64,000 nt of DNA from an uncultured Phycisphaerales bacterium (GTDB lineage Bacteria > Planctomycetota > Phycisphaerae > Tepidisphaerales > Tepidisphaeraceae): NCBI GenBank assembly GCA_963844715.1, contig CAWJPJ010000007.1, positions 1,152,001 through 1,216,000 on the forward strand, in the 5' to 3' direction. This document shows, one piece after another, positions 7,000 to 22,380 of the stretch. Numbering within the stretch: the stretch's first letter is position 1; every line of letters starts with the position of its first letter. The position numbers and the translations under genes are program-made. The notes under the pieces are model-generated. The model did no database searches. It was not told the origin of the DNA and was given only the letters and a program-made list of their open reading frames with translations.

Positions 7000-8563
7000 T
7001 TACGATCCACTCTGGCTACGGGGAACTCCAAGGCGGTCATAAAGTTCCCCCTCTTTTTTAAAAAGCATCGAGTCGCCATACCTACGCCCGGAAAGCCGGG
7101 CGGCGTTGTCGAGGACCGTGTTGTAGTGCGCGGTGAGAGCGTGTCTAAAGAAACTTGGGACGTCCAGGACACCACCGGATAGATGAACCTGAGCCCACTC
7201 CAAGTCGTCGAGGGACAAGATCGTCCAATCTATATCGTGCATCGCCGCTGGCAGATCCGCCCTCAGAAATTCCTTGAAGGGCACACTTCCCGACAAATAG
7301 GTTGGCTCAAGAGTGACCACAACGGGTATGAACTCCTTGCATCTTGCAAGTCGCTCAAGGCCCTTCATTTTTCCTGCCGCCGCAGATCGAAATTCGAACA
7401 CCTGTATCAATCCGTCCCTGATAGCCCTCAGGCTTTCCTCGAGCTTATCTTCGCGACCGGTTGCATAAACGATCCGATGGATTCTCGCGATCTTGACCTC
7501 GACCAAAACCGCGGTTTTCCCTTCGAGCAATACAAAATCCGGAATTTTGCCCGCGCTCGTGGGGTAGGTTTGTCGAATCTCGTCCTCCGATATTACGTGG
7601 CCGTCGGGAACGCAATTGCGCAGTAAACGACCAACATACAAAGTAAGTAAATGGCCAAAGTATTCGTCGAACGAATCCCTCCACCGCATGTGCATGTCGT
7701 AATAGACCCCGCTGGTCAACCGATAAAGAAGCAAATCTGGTAAGGGAGCGATCATCCGATCAAACTCCATCCGTGCCCCTATTTCCAGAGGCCATGGCCG
7801 AATGAGAGGGAAGACCATTAAAGAGTTGAAGTCGTATGCCGCGTAGTCGCGGCATTGTTGCTGCAGCTTACTGGAACGCCTCGCGTGTTCAGAGCTATCG
7901 GCGGCGAAATTTCTAAGCACCGCTTGTACGGTATCATCGTCGGCAACCGCCAATCCGACCTCCCTTGCCCTTTTGAAGTAGGTTCGCGCGAACCCGAGTT
8001 GGTTGCCGCTCCTAGCTGCCGCATACGCCACGAGCCCTACGTTGATGAAGTCTGTGACGTCCGTTCCAGTCAGATCTCTAAATCGGGCAGCAAAATCGAA
8101 GGGGGGCACGTGCTTCATTCCCAGCAGCTGCATGGGCAAGTCGTTGTACATTATTTGAGTGCGCCCCAATTTGCCGCAAGGATTAATCACATAGGGGAAT
8201 TGGTTGCCAGCGTGGCGCAGCATGATCGATAAGGTAGATCTCGGAACATCGTCGCTCCAAGCCACCGGGTCAGCATGCGCAAATTTGGCAGCCAAGTTTA
8301 GTATCGGACTCAGTTCGCCTGGCGCGATTGGCGTCGCATTCTCAGTCATAGGCCCCGGGATTCCATATCGTGTGATAAAGCGGGCCGCGGTTCCCACTAC
8401 ATGCGGGGGAATTCCAGTCGCTGTCTCAGGCGAGTAGGCGGGCAGTGCCGCGCACCGCCAGAAGCAATCCATCCAACTGATATCGTCGCACCTCTCGCGC
8501 AATTCGCTCCTCTAATTCAACGAGCTCCGCCAAGCTCCCGATCTCCATTTTAGCCATCGTCAT
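7000..8563 (-). CDS. Hypothetical ~520-aa protein with a C-terminal PD-(D/E)XK nuclease-like motif (probable frameshift near 8430)
   Basis: GKIPDFVLLEGKTAVLVEVK; lower GC than the flanks; a 45-codon ORF from ATG 8563 probably supplies the N-terminus. Confidence 0.65.
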
Positions 8564-10074: not shown

Positions 10075-11859
10075 CTAAAAACCCGTGCGTTTAAATTGCT
10101 TTTCCAAGTCGTGCAATGTTAGTCGCAGCGTCGTCGGTCGGCCATGGGGGCAATTACTTCCCCGTTCCAGCAGATGCCGCCGCGCGAGCAGCGCCTCGAT
10201 TTCCGCCGCCGAAAGCGGATCGCCCGCTTTGATCGCCGCTTTGCACGCCATCATATCCAGAACTTCGTGCAGCATCTCTTCCTGATTCAGATCAAGCTGT
10301 TCCTGTTCCCCTTTTTCGAGCAGTTCGCGGAGGAAATCGATCGGATCGAGCCGATGCAAAAAGCTCGGAAACGCGTGCACTGCCACGCCATCCGGCCCGA
10401 CGGCCGCCGCTTCGATTCCCAATCGCTGCAAAAGCTCCTGCGCCTGTTCGAGTATTTCAATCTGTCGCGCCGACGCCGGAAAAGTCGCCGGAATGAGCAG
10501 CCGCTGGCTTTCCAGCGGCCCGCGATTCACGCGCACCAGCAAATCTTCATACATCACCCGTTCATGCAACGCGTGCTGATCGATAATGATCAGTCCATCT
10601 TCCGTTTCGGCCACAAGATAACTGTTGTGCAATTGCAGCGCCGGCGTAACCCCCGCATCCGCGGGTTTAATTGCCCGCGAAATCGGCGCCGAAGCAAAAG
10701 GACCCGCATTCGCCACAGGCGTTGAAAACGCAGAGGCCGAAGATTGCGATGACGTCGCCGGCGCTGCGATGGACGACGGCGACTGAAAAAACGCCGCAAG
10801 GCGCTGCCGCAACTCCACGCGTTCGGTTTCATCTTGAGCCCGGTTGAGCGAAGCGGCGGGCGAAAGATCGCTGCCGAGCAGTCTTTCGCGCACCGCCGAC
10901 AAAACCAAACCGTGAATCCGGCCGCTGTCGCGAAAGCGCACTTCCGATTTCGTGGGATGCACATTCACATCCACATCCCCCGGCGGAATCGTCAGGAAAA
11001 AAATCGCCGCCGGTTGCCGCCCCGGTTCGGTGAGTCCCCGATACGCTTCGCGCAGGCGCGTGCTGAATAAACCGATCGCGAATCCAGCGGTTGTTCAGAA
11101 AAAAGAATTGATGTTTCGGCGTCGGCCGCGCCAGTTCCGGCTTTCCGATCAAGCCTTGCAGCGAAATTTCCGCATCGCGCACGTCGATGGAAAGCGAAAG
11201 CGCCGCAAATTCCTCCGGCCACGCCGCCAGCCAGCGCGTTTTCGCATCCGTCCTTGGCAAATCGAGAACGGTTCTCCCGTTGTGAATCAATTTAAACGCA
11301 ATTTCCGGAAACGGCACGGCCAATCGGAGGATTGCGTCGCTGACATGCCCGAATTCCGTCGGTGCGCTGCGCAGAAATTTCCGTGCGCCGGGATATTGAA
11401 AAAAAGATGCCGAACCTCGATGACCGTTCCGAAATTTCCCGCCGCGGCTTGGGGCTCGTCGATGATTCCGCCGCGATTTTGGATTTCATACGCGATCTGT
11501 TCATCGCGCACGCGGGAAAGAATTCGCGATTGCGCAACCGATCCGATGCTCGCCAGCGCTTCGCCGCGAAAACCCATCGTGGAAATTCGAAAAAGATCGT
11601 CTTCGTCGTGAAGTTTGCTGGTGGCGTGCGACGCGAAAGCGAGGGGAAGCTCGGCGGCGGGGATTCCCTGGCCGTCGTCGATGACGCGGATGAGTTCGAT
11701 GCCGCCCTCCTCGATTTCGACGACAATCCGGGTCGCGCCGGCGTCGAGGGAATTTTCGACCAGTTCCTTGACGACCGAGGCGGGGCGTTCGATCACTTCG
11801 CCGGCGGCGATGCGATTGACGAGCGCGGGGGAGAGACGTTCGATGGCGTTTCGCTGCAC
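10075..11859 (-). CDS. mutL: DNA mismatch repair endonuclease MutL (frameshifts near 11380 and 11060)
   Basis: IAAGEVIERPASVVKELVENSLDAG, GFRGEALASI, DVNVHPTKSEV, DQHALHER endonuclease motif, CPHGRP. Confidence 0.96.
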
Positions 11860-12783: not shown

Positions 12784-13596
12784 ATGGAGCATCTAGAGGG
12801 ACGGCAATCGATACTGGCGGCGCTGGGGCGCGGCTGCGCAAATTTGAGGTGATATTGATCGGGCACGGGGCGCATGAGTCGAAGATCCGGGACGTGCTGG
12901 CCGCGGCCGCGGCAGCGCAGGTGCCTGTGAAACGCGTGGCGCGAAGTGAACTGGATGCGATGGCGCACGGGGCGACGCATGGGGGAATCGTGGCGGTGTG
13001 CTCGAGGCAAGCCACGGACGACGGGAAAGGAACTAATGGACCTGGTTCGGGGTCTGCGGCGGGCGCCGCTGCTGCTTTTGATCGAGGGGATTGACGATGC
13101 GCGGAACCTGGGATTTACACTTCGAAGCGCGCGGGCGTTGGGGGCGGATGCGGTGTTGGTGAAGAAGCATCTTTGGGATTTTGATCCGGTGGAGGTGGCG
13201 CGGCCGGCGTCGGGGGCATATGAACAGATGCCGATGGTGCAGGTCGAGGACGAACAGATTTTGCGGGACCTCAAGCGAGAGGGGCTGCGCCTTCTGGGGT
13301 GCATCGGCGGGGCGCGGCGGAGTCTTTATGATGCGGATTTGACGCAAGGAGTCATTCTTGCGATCGGGGGAGAAAAGCGGGGATTGTCGGGGGCGGTTCG
13401 GGACCTGTGCGATGGATTGATCAGCATCCCGACGGAAGAGGGAGGGGCGTCGCTCCCGCTGTCGCATGCGGCGGCGGTTGTTTTGGCGGAAGCCCGGCGG
13501 CAAAGGCATGTTTTTAATGGGTTTGAGCGGTCGGTTCGGGTAAACTCGGGTGTTCAATCGGCGATGGTCGCCGCGGAGATGAAACAGCATGGCTAA
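12784..13596 (+). CDS. SpoU/TrmH-family RNA methyltransferase (RlmB-like, frameshifted)
   Basis: HGGIVA, LLLIEGIDDARNLGFTLRSA, IGGEKRGL, SLPLSHAAAVVL. Confidence 0.88.
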
Positions 13597-13861
13597 GGCA
13601 AATGTAGATCCTGCGGAATTGAGAAGGTTTGCCCAGGATTTGAACCGGTTTAACAACGAATTACAGGGTTTGCTTGGGAGTCTTCAGACGCGCTTGCGCG
13701 GGTTGGACTCGACGTGGCGCGATCAGGAGCAGCGGAAATTCACCGAGGCGTTCGAGCAGACGCTCAAGGCGATCGGGAAGTTTCTGGAAAGCGCGCACGA
13801 GCACGTGCAGTTCCTGAACAAGAAGGCGACCGCGGTCGAGGATTATCTGAAACAGCGGTAA
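13589..13861 (+). CDS. WXG100-family (ESAT-6-like) protein
   Basis: 90 aa; N-terminal VDPAELRRFA; helix-turn-helix with central W-R-D variant of WXG. Confidence 0.88.
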   Translation: MAKANVDPAELRRFAQDLNRFNNELQGLLGSLQTRLRGLDSTWRDQEQRKFTEAFEQTLKAIGKFLESAHEHVQFLNKKATAVEDYLKQR

Positions 13862-13888
13862 TTTTCGCGGAGTATTTCGGGAGCGATC

Positions 13889-14944
13889 ATGTCCACAGGC
13901 GCGCGCGTTGAATCGATCGACGCCATCAAAGAATTCCGCGTTTATCTGACCAAGTTCAAGGAAAACGCGGGGCTGGCGCTGGGAGACGCGGATTCAGATT
14001 TAAATAAGGTTCAGGCGTGGCTGGAAGGGGAGGCGCAGAACTATTGGACCGGGCAGATTCGCAAGCGGCAGGAGCTGGTTTCGCGGTGCGAGGAGGCGTA
14101 TCGGCAGAAGAGGATTTATAAGGATTCGAGCGGGTCGATGGCGTCGGCGGTTGACGAGCAGAAGGCGCTGGCGAACGCGAAGAAAAGCCTCACGGAGGCA
14201 CAGGAGAAATTAAAGAACGTGCAGGGGTGGAGTCGGAAGCTGCAAAAGGAAATGGTTTTGTATCGAGGCGGTGTGGCACGGTTTTCGAATGACGTGTCGG
14301 CAGGAATACCGCACGCGATTGCGCAATTGGGGGCCATGATCGAGATGCTCGAGAAATATGTCAGCATCGCAGTGGGCGAAGTTGGAGAGGGAGGAGCGGA
14401 GGGAGCGGTTGCGGGAGTGGGAGGAGAAAGCGGCGGGGCGAGGATGTCGCGATCGCCGGACGAGATGCCAGTGGCGGAGGCGAAGCCATTTGATGTCGCG
14501 GCGCTGCGAGAGGCATTGCCGAAGGACGAGGCGTTGGGAGAGCCGGTGCCGCTGGGACTGGTAACGCTTGGGGTTGGCGAGGTGAAGCCGGAGCAAAGGA
14601 GCCGGTCCGCGGGACTGCTGGTGGACGAGGGAGCGGGGGATGGGGAGACCGTGATATTGACTGGAGAATCGGCGTGGGCGGATCGGATTTTTATGGCCCG
14701 CATGGCCGATGGGCGGAAATTCGCGTGGTTTGTCGGGTCGGTCGATGCGCCGGGGGATACGGTGTACAATAAGTCGACGGTGAGCCAGCTTGAGGCTGGA
14801 AGGCCGGATATCGCCGAGCTGCTGAAACTTCCCGCCGAAACGGTCTTGATCTTCGACGGGAGCGGGCTAGCTGGTGTTTATAACTCAAGTAATGAGAATA
14901 TCTTACCGCCGCCGGCTGAAGAAGAGGGGAAAAAGGCGTCGTAG
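13889..14944 (+). CDS. Helical WXG/LXG-like N-terminal domain, Gly/Glu linker and Imm33-like C-terminal domain
   Basis: About 160-aa coiled region (WLEGEAQNYW); C-terminal IFMAR..AWFVG..VSQLEAGRPDIAELLKLP..VLIFDG. Confidence 0.65.
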   Translation: MSTGARVESIDAIKEFRVYLTKFKENAGLALGDADSDLNKVQAWLEGEAQNYWTGQIRKRQELVSRCEEAYRQKRIYKDSSGSMASAVDEQKALANAKKSLTEAQEKLKNVQGWSRKLQKEMVLYRGGVARFSNDVSAGIPHAIAQLGAMIEMLEKYVSIAVGEVGEGGAEGAVAGVGGESGGARMSRSPDEMPVAEAKPFDVAALREALPKDEALGEPVPLGLVTLGVGEVKPEQRSRSAGLLVDEGAGDGETVILTGESAWADRIFMARMADGRKFAWFVGSVDAPGDTVYNKSTVSQLEAGRPDIAELLKLPAETVLIFDGSGLAGVYNSSNENILPPPAEEEGKKAS

Positions 14945-14962
14945 AGCAACGGAGGTGTTTCC

Positions 14963-15175
14963 ATGGGCATGCACGAAGGGCGAGCGCGACTGGGAAAATC
15001 GGTCAAAGAACTGATGATGAAATGGTCGGAGGCTCAGTCGCAATGGAACGACTCGACGAGCAAGGCGTTCGAGAAGAGATTCTTGGTTCCGATCGATATG
15101 GATTCGCGTCAGGCGATCGGGGCGATGGATCAAATGGCAAACCTTCTTCAGAAGATCAAGCACGATTGCGAATGA
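14963..15175 (+). CDS. Small WXG100-like helical protein
   Basis: 70 aa; GGAGG RBS; KWSEAQSQWNDSTSKAFE central W-x-D turn. Confidence 0.7.
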   Translation: MGMHEGRARLGKSVKELMMKWSEAQSQWNDSTSKAFEKRFLVPIDMDSRQAIGAMDQMANLLQKIKHDCE

Positions 15176-15182
15176 ATTAATC

Positions 15183-18100
15183 ATGAGTACCGATTCAGCA
15201 GTGACGATGGAGAACCTACCTCCCGAACCTCCCGAGAAAGATTCGAACGGCCAGGGCAATGGCGAAGGGGAGCCGAACGAGCCGCTTCCGCCGACGAATC
15301 GGGATTTGCAGCGTGGGGCGCTTCAGGATTTGATCGATCTGGCGACGCAGTGCGCGGATCTGGAATCGCGCCTGGACAGGGAATTGAAGGGGTCGCTGGA
15401 CGACACCCAGGCGGGGAATGAGAAATCACTGGCCGATCTGGAGCGGAACTACAAGAGTCTTCAGGATCAAATCGCGCGAAATACGACGACCGGGCGGGGC
15501 AAATCGCGGCGCGGTATCAGCAGAACCAGGCGGCGCTGAAGGCGCACGATGAAACGGTCCGGCGGAAAGCGAAGAACGAATTTGAAAACGGCCAGGACGA
15601 ACTAAAAAAGAAATATGAGCAGGCGACCTGGCTGGCGGAGAGCGTGCTGGAGGCAGCGGAAGGGAAGGTCGCCGACGATCTGAAAAAAGCGCAGGAGCAG
15701 CAAAGGCAGCAGGCGGAACTGCTCGACGCGAAGGAAAACGAAGCCAAGGCGCTGCTGGATCGATACAACCAGGAGCCGCCGGCGTCGCCCGCCGCGGCGA
15801 AAAAATCGGATTCGGACGAGGCAATCGTTCCCTTCGAGGAGCAGCAGCAGGTGATCGAGCAGCAGCTCTCGCAATTGGCGGGGCTGTCGGTTCCAAATCT
15901 TTTCGTGGGGATTCGGCCTTATATTCTGGTGATTTTGCTGGTGGGTTTGTCGGTCGCGGGGCCGCAGCTTGTTCCTCCCACGCTTGATCCGCAGTGGAAA
16001 ATGCTGGGGATTTCGGTCGGATCGACGCTTGCCCTGGTGACGGTAGGGCTGCTGCTGCTGAAGGCGATGGCGCGGAAACAGGTTTTGGCGGCGTATCTGC
16101 CCCTGCGCAAGGCATTGGACGAGGCGCGGGGGATACGGATCAGTTGATGGAACGCGCCAACATGCAGCGCGAGATGGATTTGGCCAAGGCGGCAAAGCAG
16201 CACAAGGCCGAAAACCACGCGGCCCGCGACAAGGCGGCGCCGATCTTGGATAAAATGACCAAGAAGCGGGACGGGACGATCGCGGCGGCGCAAGCGGAAT
16301 TGCAGAAAAGGACTGCGGAAAACGAGTCGCAGCGCAAGTCGGGGTCGCAGGAACTGGAAGAATGGCGGACGCAGAAGCTGGCGGAACTGAAACAGAAATA
16401 CGAGACGGAACTGGCGAATATCGGTTCGCGCACGACGCAGCGGCAGGATAATCTGAAACAGCAGTTCGCATCAGACCGCGGGAATCTGGAAAAGCGCTGG
16501 CACGACGGGCTGGTGAAGATTCAGGAGCCGATTTCCGAAGAGGGGGCATCGGGCGCGCCGTGGGGTGATCCGAGCTGGGACAACTGGAAGCCGCCGACGA
16601 AGTTCCCGGCAACGATCCGGTTCGGGGAATTGCAGGTGGACTTGCAGACGATCGTGTCGGGAATCGCCAAGGAGGCGCCGTTCACGCTGCCGCTGCCGGA
16701 GACGTTTGCGGTGCCGGCGCTGATGGCGTTTCCGCGGCAGGCTTCGATGATGATCCACACGGACCGGCCCGGGCGCGCCGATTCGGTCAAGGCGATGCAG
16801 ACGGTGATGACGCGGCTGCTGACGTGCCTGCCGCCGGGGCGGGTGCATTTCACGCTGTGCGATCCAGTGGGGTTGGGCCAGAACTTTTCAGGGTTCATGC
16901 ACCTGGGGGATTTCGATGAAAAGCTGGTGGGCCCGCGGATTTGGACCGATGCCGAGCAGATCGACCAAAAGCTGGCGAATCTGACCGAGCATATGGAGAC
17001 GGTCATCCAGAAATATCTGCGCAACGAATTTGCGACGATCGACGATTACAACGCGCAGGCGGGGGAATTGGCGGAACCGTACCGGTTTCTGGTGATCGCG
17101 GATTATCCGGTGAACATCAGCGACGAAGCGTTCCGGCGGCTGAGCAGCATCGCGACGACCGGGGCGCGCTGCGGCGTGTATACGCTGATCATGCGGGACA
17201 CCCGCATTACCACCGGGGCGGGGACGCATCTGGATGATCTTCAGGCGCACAGCATCAATCTGGTGCGCGAGGGGGAGAGGTTCATCTGGGGAGACGAGGT
17301 GTTCAAGCAATTTCCTCTGTCGGTCGATGCCGCGCCGACTGACGAAGAATTGACCAAGCTATTGCATCAGGTGGGGCGCAAGGCGAAAGACGCGAGCCGC
17401 GTTGAGGTGCCGTTTACGAGCATCGCGCCGAAGCTGCCGGATTTCTGGACGCTGAAGAGTTCGAGCGATGTGCAGGTGGCGATCGGCCGCATGGGGGCGA
17501 CGCGATTGCAGATGTTCCGATTGGGCAAGGGGGTCGCCCAACATGCGCTGATCGCCGGCAAGACCGGTTCGGGTAAGTCAACGCTGCTGCACGCGCTGAT
17601 TAGCAATCTGGCGATGTGGTATTCGCCGGAGGAGATCGAGCTTTATTTGATCGACTTCAAAAAGGGCGTTGAATTCAAGACTTACGCGGCGCATCTGCTG
17701 CCGCATGCGAAGGCGATCGCCGTCGAGAGCGACCGGGAATTTGGATTGAGCGTTTTGCAGAGGCTCGACGCGGAACTGACCCGGCGCGGTAATCTTTATC
17801 GCAAATTCGGGTCGCAGGACCTGACGAGTTATCGCAAGGATTCGGGCGAAACGTTGCCGCGGACGCTGTTGATCATCGACGAATTTCAGGAATTTTTCAG
17901 CGAAGACGACAAATTGGCGGCGGACGCGTCACTGCTGATCGACCGGTTGGTGCGACAGGGTCGTGCGTTCGGAATTCACGTGATGCTGGGTTCTCAGACG
18001 ATCGGCGGATCGTCGGGGCTTTCGCGAAGCACGATCGGGCAGATCGCGGTGAGGATCGCGCTGCAAACGAGCGAGGCGGATTCGCAGATGATCCTGGGGG

Positions 18101-19167
18101 ACGGGAACTCGGCGGCGAGATTGCTGTCCCGGCCGGGCGAAGCGATTTACAACGATGCGGGGGGACTGGTGGAGGGGAATAGCCCGTTCCAGGTGGCATG
18201 GCTGCCGGATGAGCAGCGCGACGTATTTTTGGAGCAGGTGAATGAAAAAGTTCGCCAGACGGGGGTCAAGGGGAACGTGCCGATCGTCTTCGAGGGAAAT
18301 GCGCCGGCGGATATACGCAAGAATCCGCTGCTGATGGAGCGGCTTGATGCGGCGGCGTATGAGCCGCTGGTCGGCGCGCCGGTGGCGTGGCTGGGCGATC
18401 CCGTGGCGATCAAGAATCCGACGGCAGTGTCTTTCCGCCGGCAAAGCGGCGCAAGCGTGCTCATCGTCGGGCAGAACGAGGAGGCTGCGCTGGCGATGAT
18501 GTCGCAGGCGATGGTCGGGCTGGCGGCGCAGCTGTCTCCCAAGGAGGCGAGCTTTGTGATTTTGGACGGGAGTCCGGCAGATTCGCCGTCGTTCGGTGTT
18601 TTGGGGAAGGTCGCGGGGGCGCTGCCTCACGAATCGAAGAACGTGGAATATCGCGCGGTCCCGGAAGCGATTCATGAACTGGCCAAGGAATTGGCGACGC
18701 GGCACGAGTCGGATACGTCGAATCCGCCGGCGATTTTCGTGATGATATTCGGGATGCAGAGGTATCGGTCCTTGCGGAAGAGCGAGGAGTCGTTCAGCTT
18801 TTCGAGCGGGGACGAGGAGAAGCCGCCTGATCCCGGGAAGGAATTCGCGGATTTGATGCGCGACGGGCCGGCGGCGGGGATTCACATCATTTCGTGGATC
18901 GACACGGCAACGGCGCTGGACCGGGCATTGGATCGCACGGCGATGCGCGAATTCGACAATCGGATTCTGTTCCAGATGAGCGCGACGGACAGCAGCAACC
19001 TGATCGATTCGCCGGCGGCGAACAAGCTGGGGGTCAACCGAGCGATGGCCTACAGCGAAGAACAGGGAACGACGGAAAAGTTCAGGCCTTATGCGCTGGC
19101 GGATGCGGGTTGGCTGGTGGAAGTAAAGCAGAAACTGGCGGCAAAATCCGCGGCGATCAAAGCCTGA
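15183..19167 (+). CDS. EccC/EssC-like FtsK/SpoIIIE membrane ATPase (~1330 aa; frameshifts near 15480 and 16130)
   Basis: Coiled coil, two hydrophobic segments, coiled coil, degenerate ATPase-like domain, intact AGKTGSGKS/LLIIDEFQE domain (IDFK, RQGRAFGIHVML), degenerate third domain. Confidence 0.88.
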
Positions 19168-19227: not shown

Positions 19228-19644
19228 ATGCGCGCTTCCAAAATAAAACTTCCGAGTCGGCGGTATCTGGAACTGATCCGCGAATTTCCACTCCGTCCGA
19301 TCCGGACTAAGACGGAAGCGGCGGCGGCGACGGCCATTCTCGACCGCCTATTCGGCCAGCCTGACGCCGATCCGGGGCAGGAAGACTATCTGGACGTGCT
19401 CAGCGATTTGCTGGACAGCTATGAAAGCGAAAACGATGCCGATTACGACGCGGAGGCCACGGGGATTCAAGTGCTGCGCTCGCTTATTGAGGAGCATGGA
19501 ATGAGCCAGGCGACGTTGGCCGGAAAGCTCGGGGTTTCGGCGCCTACGGTGTCCCTGATTCTGTCCAGCGAGCGGCCGATCACGGCGGAGCATGCAAGGA
19601 ACCTCGGCAAGATATTTTCAATCGATCCGGGGGTGTTTATTTGA
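19228..19644 (+). CDS. HigA-like XRE-HTH antitoxin/regulator
   Basis: FPLRPIRT...DYLDVLSDLLDSYE...GMSQATLA..GVSAPTVSLILSSERPIT. Confidence 0.85.
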   Translation: MRASKIKLPSRRYLELIREFPLRPIRTKTEAAAATAILDRLFGQPDADPGQEDYLDVLSDLLDSYESENDADYDAEATGIQVLRSLIEEHGMSQATLAGKLGVSAPTVSLILSSERPITAEHARNLGKIFSIDPGVFI

Positions 19645-20533: not shown

Positions 20534-20716
20534 TGCTGAAAATGGTTTATCCGCGGCGGGGTAGATTTCAAGGCCGATAAACCGCGAAGCCGCGAAGTTC
20601 GCGAGGATGAAAATGATCGATTGGAAATCATGGCGGGAACGCCGGGTCTTGCCGTCTGCTTCACGTCCTTGCCGCCTCGGCGGTATAATAGGCTGTTTCC
20701 AAACGAGGAATTAGAT

Positions 20717-22380
20717 ATGAATCGGGAGCGTAGCAGCATTGTGACAGAGGGTAGCCAGCGAGCGCCGCAGCGGGCGTTTTTTAAGTCGATGGGATTGACG
20801 GACGAGGACATTCACCGTCCGTGGGTGGGCGTGGCGAGCACGTGGAATGAGGCGACGCCCTGCAATCTAACTCTGGATCGGCAGGCGAAGGCGGCGAAGG
20901 AGGGGGTTAAGGCGGCCGGGGGGACGCCTCGGGAATTCGTGACGATCGCGGTGTCGGACGGAATCGCCATGGGGCACGAGGGGATGAAAGCGTCGCTGGC
21001 TTCGCGCGAGGTGATCGCGGATTCAGTGGAACTCATGATGCATGCGCATGGGTACGACGCCCTGGTGGGGCTCGCCGGGTGCGACAAGAGTCTGCCGGGG
21101 ATGCTGATGGCGATGGGCAGGCTGAATGTGCCGAGCATCTTTTTGTATGGCGGAACGATCATGCCGGGGAAATTCAAGGGGAAGGATGTCACGATTCAGG
21201 ATGTCTACGAGGCGGTGGGAGCGCACTCGGCGGGGAAAATGAGCGACGAAGATTTATACGAGATCGAGTGCCAGGCGTGCCCGACGGCGGGAAGCTGCGG
21301 GGGGCAGTTCACGGCCAACACGATGGCGTGCGTCGCGGAGGCGATCGGGATGGCGCTCCCCGGGAGCGGTTCGCCTCCGGCGATAGATACGAATCGGGAC
21401 GCGTACGCGGTCGAATGCGGGAAGCAGGTGATGCGGCTCTTGGAGAAGAACATCCGGCCGCGCGACGTCATGACACGCGAGGCGCTGGAGAACGGAATCA
21501 CGATCGCCGCGGCGACGGGCGGATCGACGAATTCGGCGCTGCATATCCCGGCGATTGCGTATGAGTGCGGGGTGACGATCGGATTGGATGATATCGAGCG
21601 GATCAGCGCGCGCACGCCGGTGATCGCGGATTTGAAGCCGTTTGGGAGATACAACGCCTATGACGTTTTCCGCGCCGGGGGAATCCCGGCGATCATGCGG
21701 GCTTTGCTCGACGCGAAACTGCTGCATGGCGATTGCCTGACGTGTACGGGAAAAACCGTCGCGGAAAACCTGGCGGGCGTGAAGCTCAAGACCGATCAGG
21801 ACGTGGTGATGCCCGCTTCGAAGGCCCTGGAAAAGACCGGCGGTTTGCACATCCTGCGCGGGAATCTGGCGCCGAGGGGTGCGTGATCAAGACGGCGGGG
21901 GTGAAGAAGCTCCAGCATCGCGGACCGGCCCGGGTGTTCAACAGCGAGGAAGAGTGCATGGCGGCCGTGCAGGCGCAGCAGGTGAAGAAGGGGGATTCGG
22001 TGATCATCCGCTACGAAGGGCCCAAGGGCGGGCCGGGCATGCGCGAAATGCTCGCGGTCACGGCGGCGATCGTCGGGCAGGGTTTGGGTTATGACGTGTG
22101 CCTGATGACGGACGGGCGATTCAGCGGCGCGACGCGCGGATTGATGGTCGGGCATATCGGGCCGGAGGCGTTCGTGGGCGGGCCGCTTGCGCTGGTGCGC
22201 GACGGGGATATGATCTCCATCGATGCGGAAAAGCGATCGATTCAGGTTGAACTCAGCGATGAGGAACTCGCCAAGCGAAAGGCGGCGTGGAAAGCGCCGA
22301 AGCCGCATTATGAGCATGGGGCGCTGGCGAAGTATGCAAGATCGGTGGGACCGGCGTGTTTTGGGGCGGTGACGCACTGA
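20717..22380 (+). CDS. ilvD: Dihydroxy-acid dehydratase (frameshift near 21880)
   Basis: [54 protein letters not shown]. Confidence 0.96.

Follow-up and report, generated by a model that had tools for sequence, protein, structure and literature searches.

A four-gene WXG100-ATPase cassette in a soil planctomycete, a likely pared-down relative of type VII protein-export machines

Introduction

Four adjacent genes in an uncultured Phycisphaerales bacterium, a soil planctomycete, raise the question of whether a type VII-like machine can work with only one membrane protein in a diderm cell. The genes lie in a 64,000-nucleotide stretch of contig CAWJPJ010000007.1 (the window), where they occupy 13589..19167 (+) with gaps of 27, 18 and 7 bp. 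The original prediction, made from the sequence alone, saw in them a stand-alone minimal WXG/FtsK module of an apparently diderm bacterium. That description is supported: the locus combines a WXG100 gene with an FtsK/EccC-type ATPase gene, and no canonical accessory gene was found in the 85%-complete genome. The novelty that it implied is not supported, as the class is already present in passages of Zhang et al. 2012 (PMC3482391) and of Bell et al. 2024 (PMC11090510) and is known from these in silico descriptions and from Helicobacter pylori HP0062/HP0066; no experimental test of the class, or of export by any member, was found in the literature searched. Two features are new here: gene 2 is free of a toxin although it occupies the slot of the toxin in mobile relatives, and the membrane hairpin of the ATPase is flanked by two helical arms of ~150 residues each. 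Overall, the cassette is likely a pared-down relative of type VII protein-export machines, with export as its likely function.

Results

Layout, conservation and setting of the cassette

All four tightly packed, co-oriented genes were recovered at their predicted positions (Table 1), which confirms that the cassette is real. Promoter and terminator scans of the cassette gave results at or near chance. The linkage, for which a synteny check had been proposed, proved to be conserved: gene order is retained in 52 of the 57 loci across PVC bacteria that had enough upstream DNA. Genes 1 and 2 and the ATPase gene co-occur in the identical 39 of 301 Planctomycetota genomes, and this co-occurrence persists where the operon is scattered, as in a family with split genes in which it holds for 13 of 14 genomes; in one genome (G274), genes 1 and 2 are joined in a single reading frame. 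Gene 2 scores one time per genome in all 39 carriers, gene 1 is present as one copy in the genome studied here, and profile searches of that genome returned no paralogue of genes 1, 2 or 3. The patchy presence (39/301) fits loss equally well as transfer.

Table 1. Features of the cassette, in positions of the window.
Feature	Position	Strand	Basis
Gene 1: WXG100 protein, 90 aa, W-R-D turn, HP0062-type	13589..13861	+	PF06013 match
Gene 2: 351 aa, long helical hairpin, acidic linker, Imm33-like domain	13889..14944	+	AlphaFold model
Imm33-like (PF24719) match inside gene 2	14678..14881	+	E 2.2e-4, under cut-off here
Gene 3: WXG-like helical protein, 70 aa, W-N-D turn	14963..15175	+	hhalign to gene 1 family
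Gene 4: membrane FtsK/EccC-type ATPase, about 1330 aa, two frameshifts	15183..19167	+	three-frame reading
Predicted transmembrane hairpin	15905..16063 (about 15905-15965 and 16001-16063)	+	hydrophobic segments
D1: FtsK/EccC fold, without Walker A, conserved G-A-R-C-G motif	16651..17431, approximate	+	Foldseek, motif table
D2: intact ATPase module	17476..18196, approximate	+	PF01580 E 5.6e-33
D2 Walker A (GKTGSGKS)	17557-17580	+	motif table
D2 Walker B Asp-Glu (IIDE)	17878-17883	+	motif table
D3: degenerate ATPase-like module, without Walker A or B	18376..19111, approximate	+	weak D2-profile match

The neighbours of the cassette in the window, an rRNA methyltransferase-like gene and a HigA-like gene, give it a housekeeping setting. 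Among 80 loci we found no recurring toxin or immunity family, no recurring relaxase, conjugation or competence gene, no recurring protease and no conserved extra partner gene, and in 23 further stretches, most of them around scattered genes, only genus-level neighbours recur. With its single copy, an ATPase tree that follows taxonomy and its retention after operon scatter, the PVC form looks resident rather than mobile. The text passages and five supplements of an essentiality paper on Planctopirus limnophila (PMC10632474) name the true FtsK alone and make no tie to the cassette.

Three helical proteins, two of them WXG-like

Gene 1 matches Pfam WXG100 (PF06013) with 47 bits against a cut-off of 27.3, as expected from its prediction as a 90-aa WXG100 protein with a W-R-D turn. 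The turn motif is W43-R-D, and W43, D45, Y86 and L87 are unvarying across 57 sequences; the top PDB match is H. pylori HP0062 (3fx7, E 1.7e-8). Gene 3 shows a weak likeness to the gene 1 family (hhalign 68.7%, E 4.5e-5) and matches TIGR03930 with E 0.013. Its turn motif is W28-N-D, in which W28 and D30 are unvarying in 60 sequences. The proposal of three WXG-like genes survives for genes 1 and 3 but goes too far for gene 2, whose ends look like those of WXG100 proteins by eye, yet which reaches only 0.5-3.5% in hhalign against gene 1. The Pfam families listed for 61 gene 2 members include neither WXG nor LXG.

The AlphaFold model of gene 2 (mean pLDDT 88) places helices at residues 10-76 and 88-163. 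Fold searches with it returned generic coiled coils only, and the profile gave no meaningful match in the PDB; LXG complexes are not among the fold matches listed, although absence from this list does not exclude a match. The C-terminal domain, which had been overlooked, appears by profile match to be Imm33-like and of immunity type, Imm33 being treated as an immunity family in passages of PMC3482391. The match in gene 2 itself has an atlas score of 0.88, a value to be taken as a lead only; the domain occurs in 54 of 83 longer gene 2 homologues scanned, most of them exceeding the cut-off, and is the sole Pfam family on longer gene 2 forms (17/25; 54/83). No toxin domain was recognised in gene 2, in line with the earlier reading of the locus.

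Slot 2 in mobile relatives

On a Helicobacter plasmid, the order is a WXG gene, a helical protein with a WHH nuclease, SMI1/KNR4 immunity, a 77-aa gene and the ATPase. On a Caballeronia plasmid the order is equivalent and slot 2 again holds a toxin; its ATPase falls inside the same D2 clade as the PVC family. The profile of the gene 2 N-domain scored above all 200 shuffles for the slot-2 genes of four of five mobile or second-copy loci; for the Helicobacter toxin N-domain, the shuffles were not beaten (10/200). One genome (G302) has a second, divergent copy in which inspection revealed a ParB-like motif on the slot-2 protein, and a homologue search with the N-domain of that protein returned itself alone.

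The ATPase: reading frame, membrane hairpin and modules

The two frameshifts in gene 4 lie near 15480 and 16130; in relatives, the ATPase is a single ORF of about 1300-1400 aa. Contigs from two of four short-read runs carry one additional base at 16127-16128, so the frameshift near 16130 is an assembly error, and no contig bridging the position near 15480 was found among the short-read contigs listed.

The protein was originally described as having a long coiled coil, two transmembrane helices and a second coiled coil, and two hydrophobic segments do lie between two long helices. The helical arms either side of the hairpin measure about 154 and 151 residues, and a model of one relative (L021) has helices at 27-182 and 257-437. 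Both outer flanks of the hairpin are basic and its loop has few basic residues; both arms of ~150 residues are predicted to be cytoplasmic, with the ATPase anchored by two transmembrane helices. The hydrophobic block is kept in 65 of 67 full-length relatives and lost in two, both Prosthecobacter, and at one of these loci genes 1 and 2 are also gone. Five plasmid ATPases also lack a transmembrane pair, one of them (L104) having a single borderline segment. On the evidence of the Prosthecobacter and plasmid forms, the family does not always depend on a pore of its own. One lead is that the PVC ATPase may be a fusion of a coiled-coil/transmembrane subunit with a soluble ATPase, to which weak matches at two loci point (L102 and L105; E 7e-3 and 1e-4 among 29 proteins).

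Three ATPase-like domains had been predicted, with the middle one alone keeping Walker A and B, and the motif table agrees: Walker A, Walker B and an RQGR arginine finger are found in D2 only, its catalytic positions are conserved at 96-100% in 67 relatives, and each of these 67 full-length proteins has exactly one Walker A match. The FtsK_SpoIIIE search that had been suggested matches D2 (Table 1). The top sequence match of D2 in the PDB is EccC ATPase 1 of 4nh0, and across the whole ATPase, PDB sequence matches reach 125 bits for EccC versus 47 for FtsK. The NCBIfam models EccCa, EssC and EccCb score 92-111 bits versus 27 for FtsK, all under cut-off; for TIGR03924 (EccC), the value is 111 bits against a cut-off of 509. 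The D1 model matches EssC 4lya, EccC 4n1a and FtsK 2ius by Foldseek, as well as ESX-3, ESX-5 and T7b core complexes, and FtsK is about as good a match to its fold as EccC/EssC.

Phylogeny of the D2 module

We placed the ATPase in a tree of D2 modules with 15 PVC rows only and five plasmid rows, together with EccC/EssC and FtsK/TcpA modules; the degenerate D1 and D3 modules, one EccC third module and the remaining PVC rows were left out. As this tree has no outgroup, it cannot be rooted. The 15 PVC and five plasmid rows form one clade (support 100/98), which in the unrooted tree is set apart from FtsK/TcpA with supports of 100/98 and 98/94. In the best tree, a split supported at 95/91 separates the EccC/EssC modules from this family plus FtsK/TcpA, and a grouping of the family with EccC/EssC module 1 was not rejected (p-AU 0.127). 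The family appears to fall in a third lineage, inside neither EccC/EssC nor FtsK, so the refuting check named in the original prediction, a grouping with DNA translocases rather than EccC/EssC, falls between its two outcomes. The ATPase tree tracks PVC taxonomy at the level of phyla. A separate, true FtsK is present in the genome, on contig C3, and relatives have a separate FtsK as well.

Accessory families

The genome searched for accessory families is 85% complete and contains frameshifts. In it we found no match for EccB or EccD (PF05108, TIGR03920), for which controls were positive, none for EsaA, EssB/YukC or EsaB/YukD (TIGR03929, PF10140, PF08817), and no LXG protein (PF04740). No FHA domain was found in the N-terminal pieces of the ATPase, where the model has a continuous helix. 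That no type VII partner and no FHA domain had been recognised here agrees with these searches.

Discussion

Proposed function and alternatives

One explanation for these results, to which we give an even chance, is that the products of the cassette act together as a self-contained exporter of type VII-like kind, by which a three-protein helical rod is moved across the inner membrane. Under this proposal, proteins 1 and 3 would pack along the hairpin of protein 2, like the two Lap proteins on an LXG domain, and the resulting rod would be the export signal. The ATPase would assemble as a hexamer as in EccC/EssC, its D1-D2-D3 series corresponding to the inactive DUF module of EccC, ATPase 1 and an additional degenerate module, and the two arms may come together as a stalk some 22 nm long. 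As the original prediction suggested, coiled coils may stand in for the accessory subunits. A toxin domain is part of protein 2 in mobile relatives. The PVC cassette looks domesticated, being single copy and toxin-free, so here the rod itself would be exported, in some Phycisphaerae perhaps with an Imm33-like passenger. The periplasm is the likelier destination; no cargo that accounts for retention of the system was found. A more specific history strikes us as speculative and rather unlikely in its full form: an ancestral toxin-delivery module would have been domesticated early in the PVC superphylum for a non-toxic job with one membrane protein, its hexamer driving the rod from ~22 nm off the inner membrane on a coiled-coil stalk, and in some Phycisphaerae an immunity domain would have replaced the toxin, such that an antidote or decoy is exported.

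One may postulate instead that the ATPase translocates nothing and is a membrane-tethered motor, which at the inner membrane's cytoplasmic face builds or dismantles polymers or rods made of the three helical proteins, with a role in envelope stress response or membrane shaping like that of PspA, Vipp1 or ESCRT-III with their ATPases. The dispensable transmembrane block of two relatives and its absence from plasmid forms (also in passages of Bell et al. 2024), together with the missing accessory pore subunits, would suit such a motor, as would a single-copy cassette with no toxin cargo and an ATPase tree that tracks PVC taxonomy. Vipp1 and ESCRT-III hairpins are indeed among the fold matches of gene 2 (Z 9-10), but unrelated coiled coils score just as well, and these matches are not specific. 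Given further that the toxin-immunity layout of mobile relatives implies extracellular delivery, and that in passages of Garrett et al. 2024 every tested WXG100/ATPase system exports, we consider both the motor and its proposed membrane role unlikely. The toxins in slot 2 of mobile relatives, along with the ParB-like motif on the slot-2 protein of the divergent second copy, could also be taken to mean ordinary antibacterial toxin delivery, with effectors encoded elsewhere whose signal is too divergent to be detected and an Imm33-like tail that is a remnant or a working immunity domain, as the immunity assignment of Imm33 would allow. This is harder to reconcile with a genome that has no paralogue of genes 1-3 and no LXG protein, with one gene 2 in every carrier, with the lack of any toxin or immunity family recurring beside the 80 loci and with longer forms of gene 2 that carry no Pfam family but Imm33-like, and we hold it to be quite improbable.

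It is more doubtful still that the ATPase pumps DNA in the manner of FtsK, SpoIIIE or TcpA, whether in segregation, in uptake or in transfer, with the helical proteins as structural partners. The fold is that of the FtsK superfamily, the best unrooted tree puts the family together with FtsK/TcpA across the split from EccC/EssC, and mobile relatives adjoin DNA-defence genes; the clade is nevertheless separate from FtsK/TcpA, separate FtsK proteins exist in the genome and its relatives, and genes for relaxases, conjugation or competence do not recur beside the 80 loci. Three tandem modules with WXG100 partners are atypical of DNA translocases and, to our knowledge, are not among their features.

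Under the more specific history sketched above, the cassette would be the simplest type VII-like translocon, with a single membrane subunit, and would allow a direct test of an ATPase-only pore. Having just four genes and one membrane protein, such a natural system should be easy to reconstitute. If the proposed export of the rod is correct, export of type VII-like kind would reach into the classical diderms, and a planctomycete role beyond toxin delivery would be indicated. As the class has been in print since 2012 and export here is a proposal, the gain hinges on experiment.

Comparison with known systems

A close description is a footnote in Zhang et al. 2012 (PMC3482391, Table 1 note 6) on a "Mobile T7SS", a solo WXG gene with a distinct YueA-like ATPase of three HerA/FtsK domains, the middle one alone active, for which planctomycetes and verrucomicrobia are named; in the passages at hand, the account consists of this footnote, with no gene map or test. 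The cassette shares with it a stand-alone, single-copy WXG100 gene (PF06013 above cut-off), three HerA/FtsK modules with catalytic motifs in the middle one alone, and an ATPase distinct from EccC/EssC and common with proteobacterial and Helicobacter forms. Unlike the "Mobile T7SS", it looks resident rather than part of a mobile element and has housekeeping neighbours. Passages of Bell et al. 2024 (PMC11090510) describe a CoCoNuT/TerY-P-associated EssC-like ATPase of the same layout with two WXG100s, a module that citing papers also trace to Anantharaman et al. 2012. Common to both are activity motifs in D2 only, an N-terminal coiled coil and a helical gene between two WXG100-like genes. In those passages, however, the CoCoNuT ATPases have no transmembrane helices, whereas the cassette has a predicted hairpin; a nuclease is joined to their helical protein and a DNA-mimic-like gene comes next, whereas gene 2 has no nuclease; and they sit in defence operons in a TerY-P/VWA context rather than among housekeeping genes. 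Passages on H. pylori (PMC3397514, PMC4978471) provide the HP0062 (PDB 3fx7, 2gts) and HP0066 pair. The Helicobacter plasmid locus differs in its WHH nuclease, its SMI1/KNR4 immunity gene and an 823-aa ATPase without long arms.

FtsK, SpoIIIE and TcpA have a single motor module, whereas the cassette ATPase has three and forms a separate clade. The LXG-Lap1-Lap2 targeting rod in passages of Klein et al. 2024 (PMC10801868) offers a likeness of a different kind, namely a longer helical protein that serves as carrier and varies in its C-terminal domain, together with two small helical partners; gene 2 is a simple hairpin of two helices without a match to an LXG profile, and we treat this as a working analogy rather than homology. 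The T7SSc-j types in passages of Garrett et al. 2024 are defined in Gram-positive phyla only. Compared with T7SSa and T7SSb, the cassette has very long helical arms, a separate ATPase clade and, in the genome searched, none of EccB, EccD, EsaA, EssB, YukD, LXG or FHA; EccC of T7SSa has a DUF module plus three ATPase modules, against three modules in all here. Nevertheless, D1 and D2 resemble the DUF module and ATPase 1 of EccC, and the cassette shares with T7SSa and T7SSb the pairing of a WXG100 protein with a two-helix, membrane-bound, multi-module ATPase of FtsK type.

Conservation of the cassette

The four-gene cassette is real and conserved. Its genes are co-oriented on the + strand, as the original prediction had placed them, with intergenic gaps of 27, 18 and 7 bp, and the nearest named relatives are Tepidisphaeraceae bins of the phylum Planctomycetota. 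Among 80 related loci, 57 had at least 2 kb of sequence upstream of the ATPase, and genes 1-2-3 occur in order in 52 of these, which bears out the proposed four-gene linkage. The five exceptions comprise one locus with a broken gene 3, one without gene 1, one without genes 1 and 2, and two with no small gene directly 5′ of the ATPase. No further gene family recurs beside the 80 loci beyond close relatives.

We also surveyed 301 evenly drawn Planctomycetota genomes. The ATPase occurs in 39 of them, and exactly these 39 also have genes 1 and 2; the other 262 have none of the three at the thresholds used. Within the window's own family, 21 of 24 relatives carry the ATPase (a count that takes in genome G004). 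Of the 14 positive genomes in one family, 13 have a split operon; G073, a complete genome, has the three genes at 5.92, 2.50 and 4.30 Mb. As every part is kept after operon breakup, this pattern shows that the parts are selected as one unit, with the caveat that kin are not independent.

Relatives encode the ATPase as one unbroken ORF of ~1300-1400 aa. The two frameshifts in the window's copy are most likely assembly errors, because contigs from two of four short-read runs carry one extra base at the second, and because two genes close by, ilvD and mutL, and the true ftsK of this genome are split too, pointing to indel errors throughout the assembly.

Features of the window and related loci
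Feature	Location	Strand	Remark
Gene 1	window 13589-13861	+	90 aa; passes Pfam WXG100 (47 bits)
Gene 2	window 13889-14944	+	351 aa
Gene 3	window 14963-15175	+	70 aa
ATPase	window 15183-19167	+	frameshifts near 15480 and near 16130
RlmB-like SpoU methyltransferase	window 12784-13596	+	stop overlaps start of gene 1
HigA-like antitoxin gene	window 19228-19644	+	starts 60 bp downstream of ATPase
500-aa ORF	window 7000-8502	-	within lower-GC stretch (0.55-0.58)
mutL	window 10075-11859	-	split by frameshift
ilvD	window 20621-22380	+	split by frameshift
True ftsK, own genome (contig C3)	G000:C3:25124-25739		split by frameshift
Prosthecobacter ATPases	L095:6858-10505; L100:6861-10508
Joint frame of genes 1 and 2, bin G274	L153:5393-6355
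Second cassette copy, genome G302	L118:5371-11591
Separate coiled-coil proteins	L102:6249-6677; L105:9376-9987
Rhodococcus plasmid ATPase	L101:5504-9472

Several neighbors were also considered. The RlmB-like methyltransferase was ruled out as a cassette member, since it lies directly upstream in only 3/80 related loci. None of the 80 related loci has a homolog of the HigA-like gene, and no HigB-like toxin ORF was seen beside this gene. The 500-aa ORF has no Pfam match; by inspection it carries a PD-(D/E)xK-like motif, and it is possibly an acquired nuclease.

Anatomy of the ATPase

All 67 full-length relatives have a single Walker A, and 65 of them have a hydrophobic block behind the first of two helical arms, whose median lengths are 154 and 151 residues. 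Because basic residues flank this membrane block on both sides and are scarce in its loop, both arms are predicted to lie in the cytoplasm; from this topology and their equal length, we infer that they pair into a stalk of ~22 nm. AlphaFold modeling of one relative, L021, over its first 751 residues (pLDDT 85) places helices 27-182 and 257-437 on either side of the membrane segment; a globular module comes next, with fold matches to EssC, EccC, FtsK and the ESX-3, ESX-5 and T7b core complexes. Of the three tandem modules (D1-D3), D2 keeps Walker A, Walker B and RQGR, with catalytic positions 96-100% conserved, and its best sequence match among solved structures is EccC ATPase 1; D1 and D3 are without Walker A. 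The layout appears to resemble EccC's DUF module and ATPase 1, with one more inactive module after them. In the two Prosthecobacter ATPases the transmembrane block is deleted (13 residues, where the median is 59); at its locus, L095 retains genes 1-3 and L100 gene 3 only.

The small proteins and the mobile relatives

The best solved relative of gene 1 is Helicobacter pylori HP0062 (E 1.7e-8), with S. aureus EsxA ranking behind, and gene 3 bears a weak likeness to gene 1. Comparison did not support homology of gene 2 to WXG100, contrary to its initial reading as WXG-like. The gene 2 N-domain represents a large family for which Pfam has no model (3171 clusters at E ≤ 0.001). The predicted structure of the whole protein has a single long hairpin (helices 10-76 and 88-163), then a linker of low confidence and an alpha/beta domain; fold searches returned generic coiled coils only. 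In most copies the C-terminus is an acidic tail of low complexity, and 12/61 copies exceed 300 aa. In bin G274, genes 1 and 2 share one open frame, either a natural fusion or a stop lost in a fragmented bin, and a weak hint of contact between proteins 1 and 2.

Mobile relatives show the role of slot 2, the place of gene 2, which in them holds a toxin. On a Helicobacter plasmid, an 89-aa WXG gene comes first; next are a gene for a helical protein that carries a WHH nuclease and an SMI1/KNR4 immunity gene, and a 77-aa gene then precedes the ATPase. This order recurs on a Caballeronia plasmid within a VWA/CARF/TerY-P operon, the arrangement described, in the accessible text, by Bell et al. with a coiled coil-nuclease fusion (PMC11090510). 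The slot-2 proteins of a Rhodococcus plasmid and of the second G302 copy end, by inspection, in a ParB-like G-x-H-R motif. Four of the five slot-2 N-domains scored higher with the gene 2 profile than all 200 shuffles did; the exception was that of Helicobacter. None of the five plasmid ATPases shows a transmembrane pair.

The divergent G302 copy comprises the ATPase, two WXG genes, the ParB-like-tailed protein, gene 3 and a VWA-like gene, with no immunity gene among them. At L102 and L105, transmembrane-less ATPases have as neighbors coiled-coil proteins that carry a membrane segment at the C-terminus; these proteins weakly match the first arm of the PVC ATPase and may supply the membrane anchor in trans. 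The Rhodococcus plasmid ATPase adjoins terD genes and has a TerD-like-looking initial segment by inspection.

Phylogeny and possible mechanism

The original prediction left it to a tree whether the ATPase groups with DNA translocases or with EccC/EssC; in an unrooted tree of D2-like modules (50 rows), the family is a third lineage, which decides for neither side. Fifteen PVC and five plasmid ATPases form one clade (100/98), separate from FtsK/SpoIIIE/TcpA (98/94; this group also takes in an unclassified Agrobacterium row) and from EccC/EssC module 1 (95/93) and module 2 (100/98). The best tree places the EccC/EssC modules on one side and the cassette family with FtsK on the other, and constraining the family with EccC/EssC module 1 was not rejected (p-AU 0.127). 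The ATPase tree follows the PVC phyla, consistent with ancient vertical descent and numerous losses. In that tree, bins that bear the names Klebsiella and Bacteroidetes (L057, L058, L079) nest within Verrucomicrobiota and are probably mislabeled.

In the most likely explanation, to which we give roughly even credence, the ATPase would act as a type VII-like translocon of a single subunit, and proteins 1-3 would be a rod exported across the inner membrane. The three proteins would assemble like LXG-Lap1-Lap2, as the accessible text describes it (PMC10801868), and the ATPase alone would move them across; in PVC bacteria the rod would be without its former toxin. It is rather unlikely that the ATPase is instead a motor tethered to the membrane that works on helical polymers without translocation. 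In the window's own genome (85% complete), searches with positive controls found none of EccB, EccD, EsaA, EssB/YukC, YukD or LXG, in line with the predicted lack of canonical type VII accessory partners, nor any paralog of genes 1-3. Toxin delivery with unrecognised effectors is improbable; the sole family found in longer gene 2 forms is Imm33-like (17/25; 54 of 83 proteins scanned among 150 listed), Imm33 being described as an immunity-protein family in the accessible part of PMC3482391. That the ATPase is a DNA pump seems very improbable indeed, and the genome has an FtsK of its own at another place.

Relation to known systems

We found no functional study of a member from PVC or other classical diderm bacteria in the mostly open literature, and the supplements of Zhang 2012 and Bell 2024 may map such loci. 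In the portions accessible, Zhang et al. 2012 (PMC3482391) name the cassette's class with planctomycetes among its hosts, Uchiyama et al. 2016 (PMC4978471) describe HP0062/HP0066 as a minimal type VII set, a review of HP0062 notes the WRD turn and FtsK linkage, Bell et al. 2024 (PMC11090510) treat the transmembrane-less form and cite Anantharaman 2012 for stand-alone copies, and Garrett et al. 2024 define T7SSc-j within Gram-positive phyla only. The cassette is not a member of T7SSa or T7SSb; it belongs to the in-silico 'solo WXG, middle-domain-active ATPase' class, and its PVC form, of which we found no description, is a membrane-anchored, long-armed, toxin-free and apparently resident variant whose toxin slot holds an immunity-type domain.
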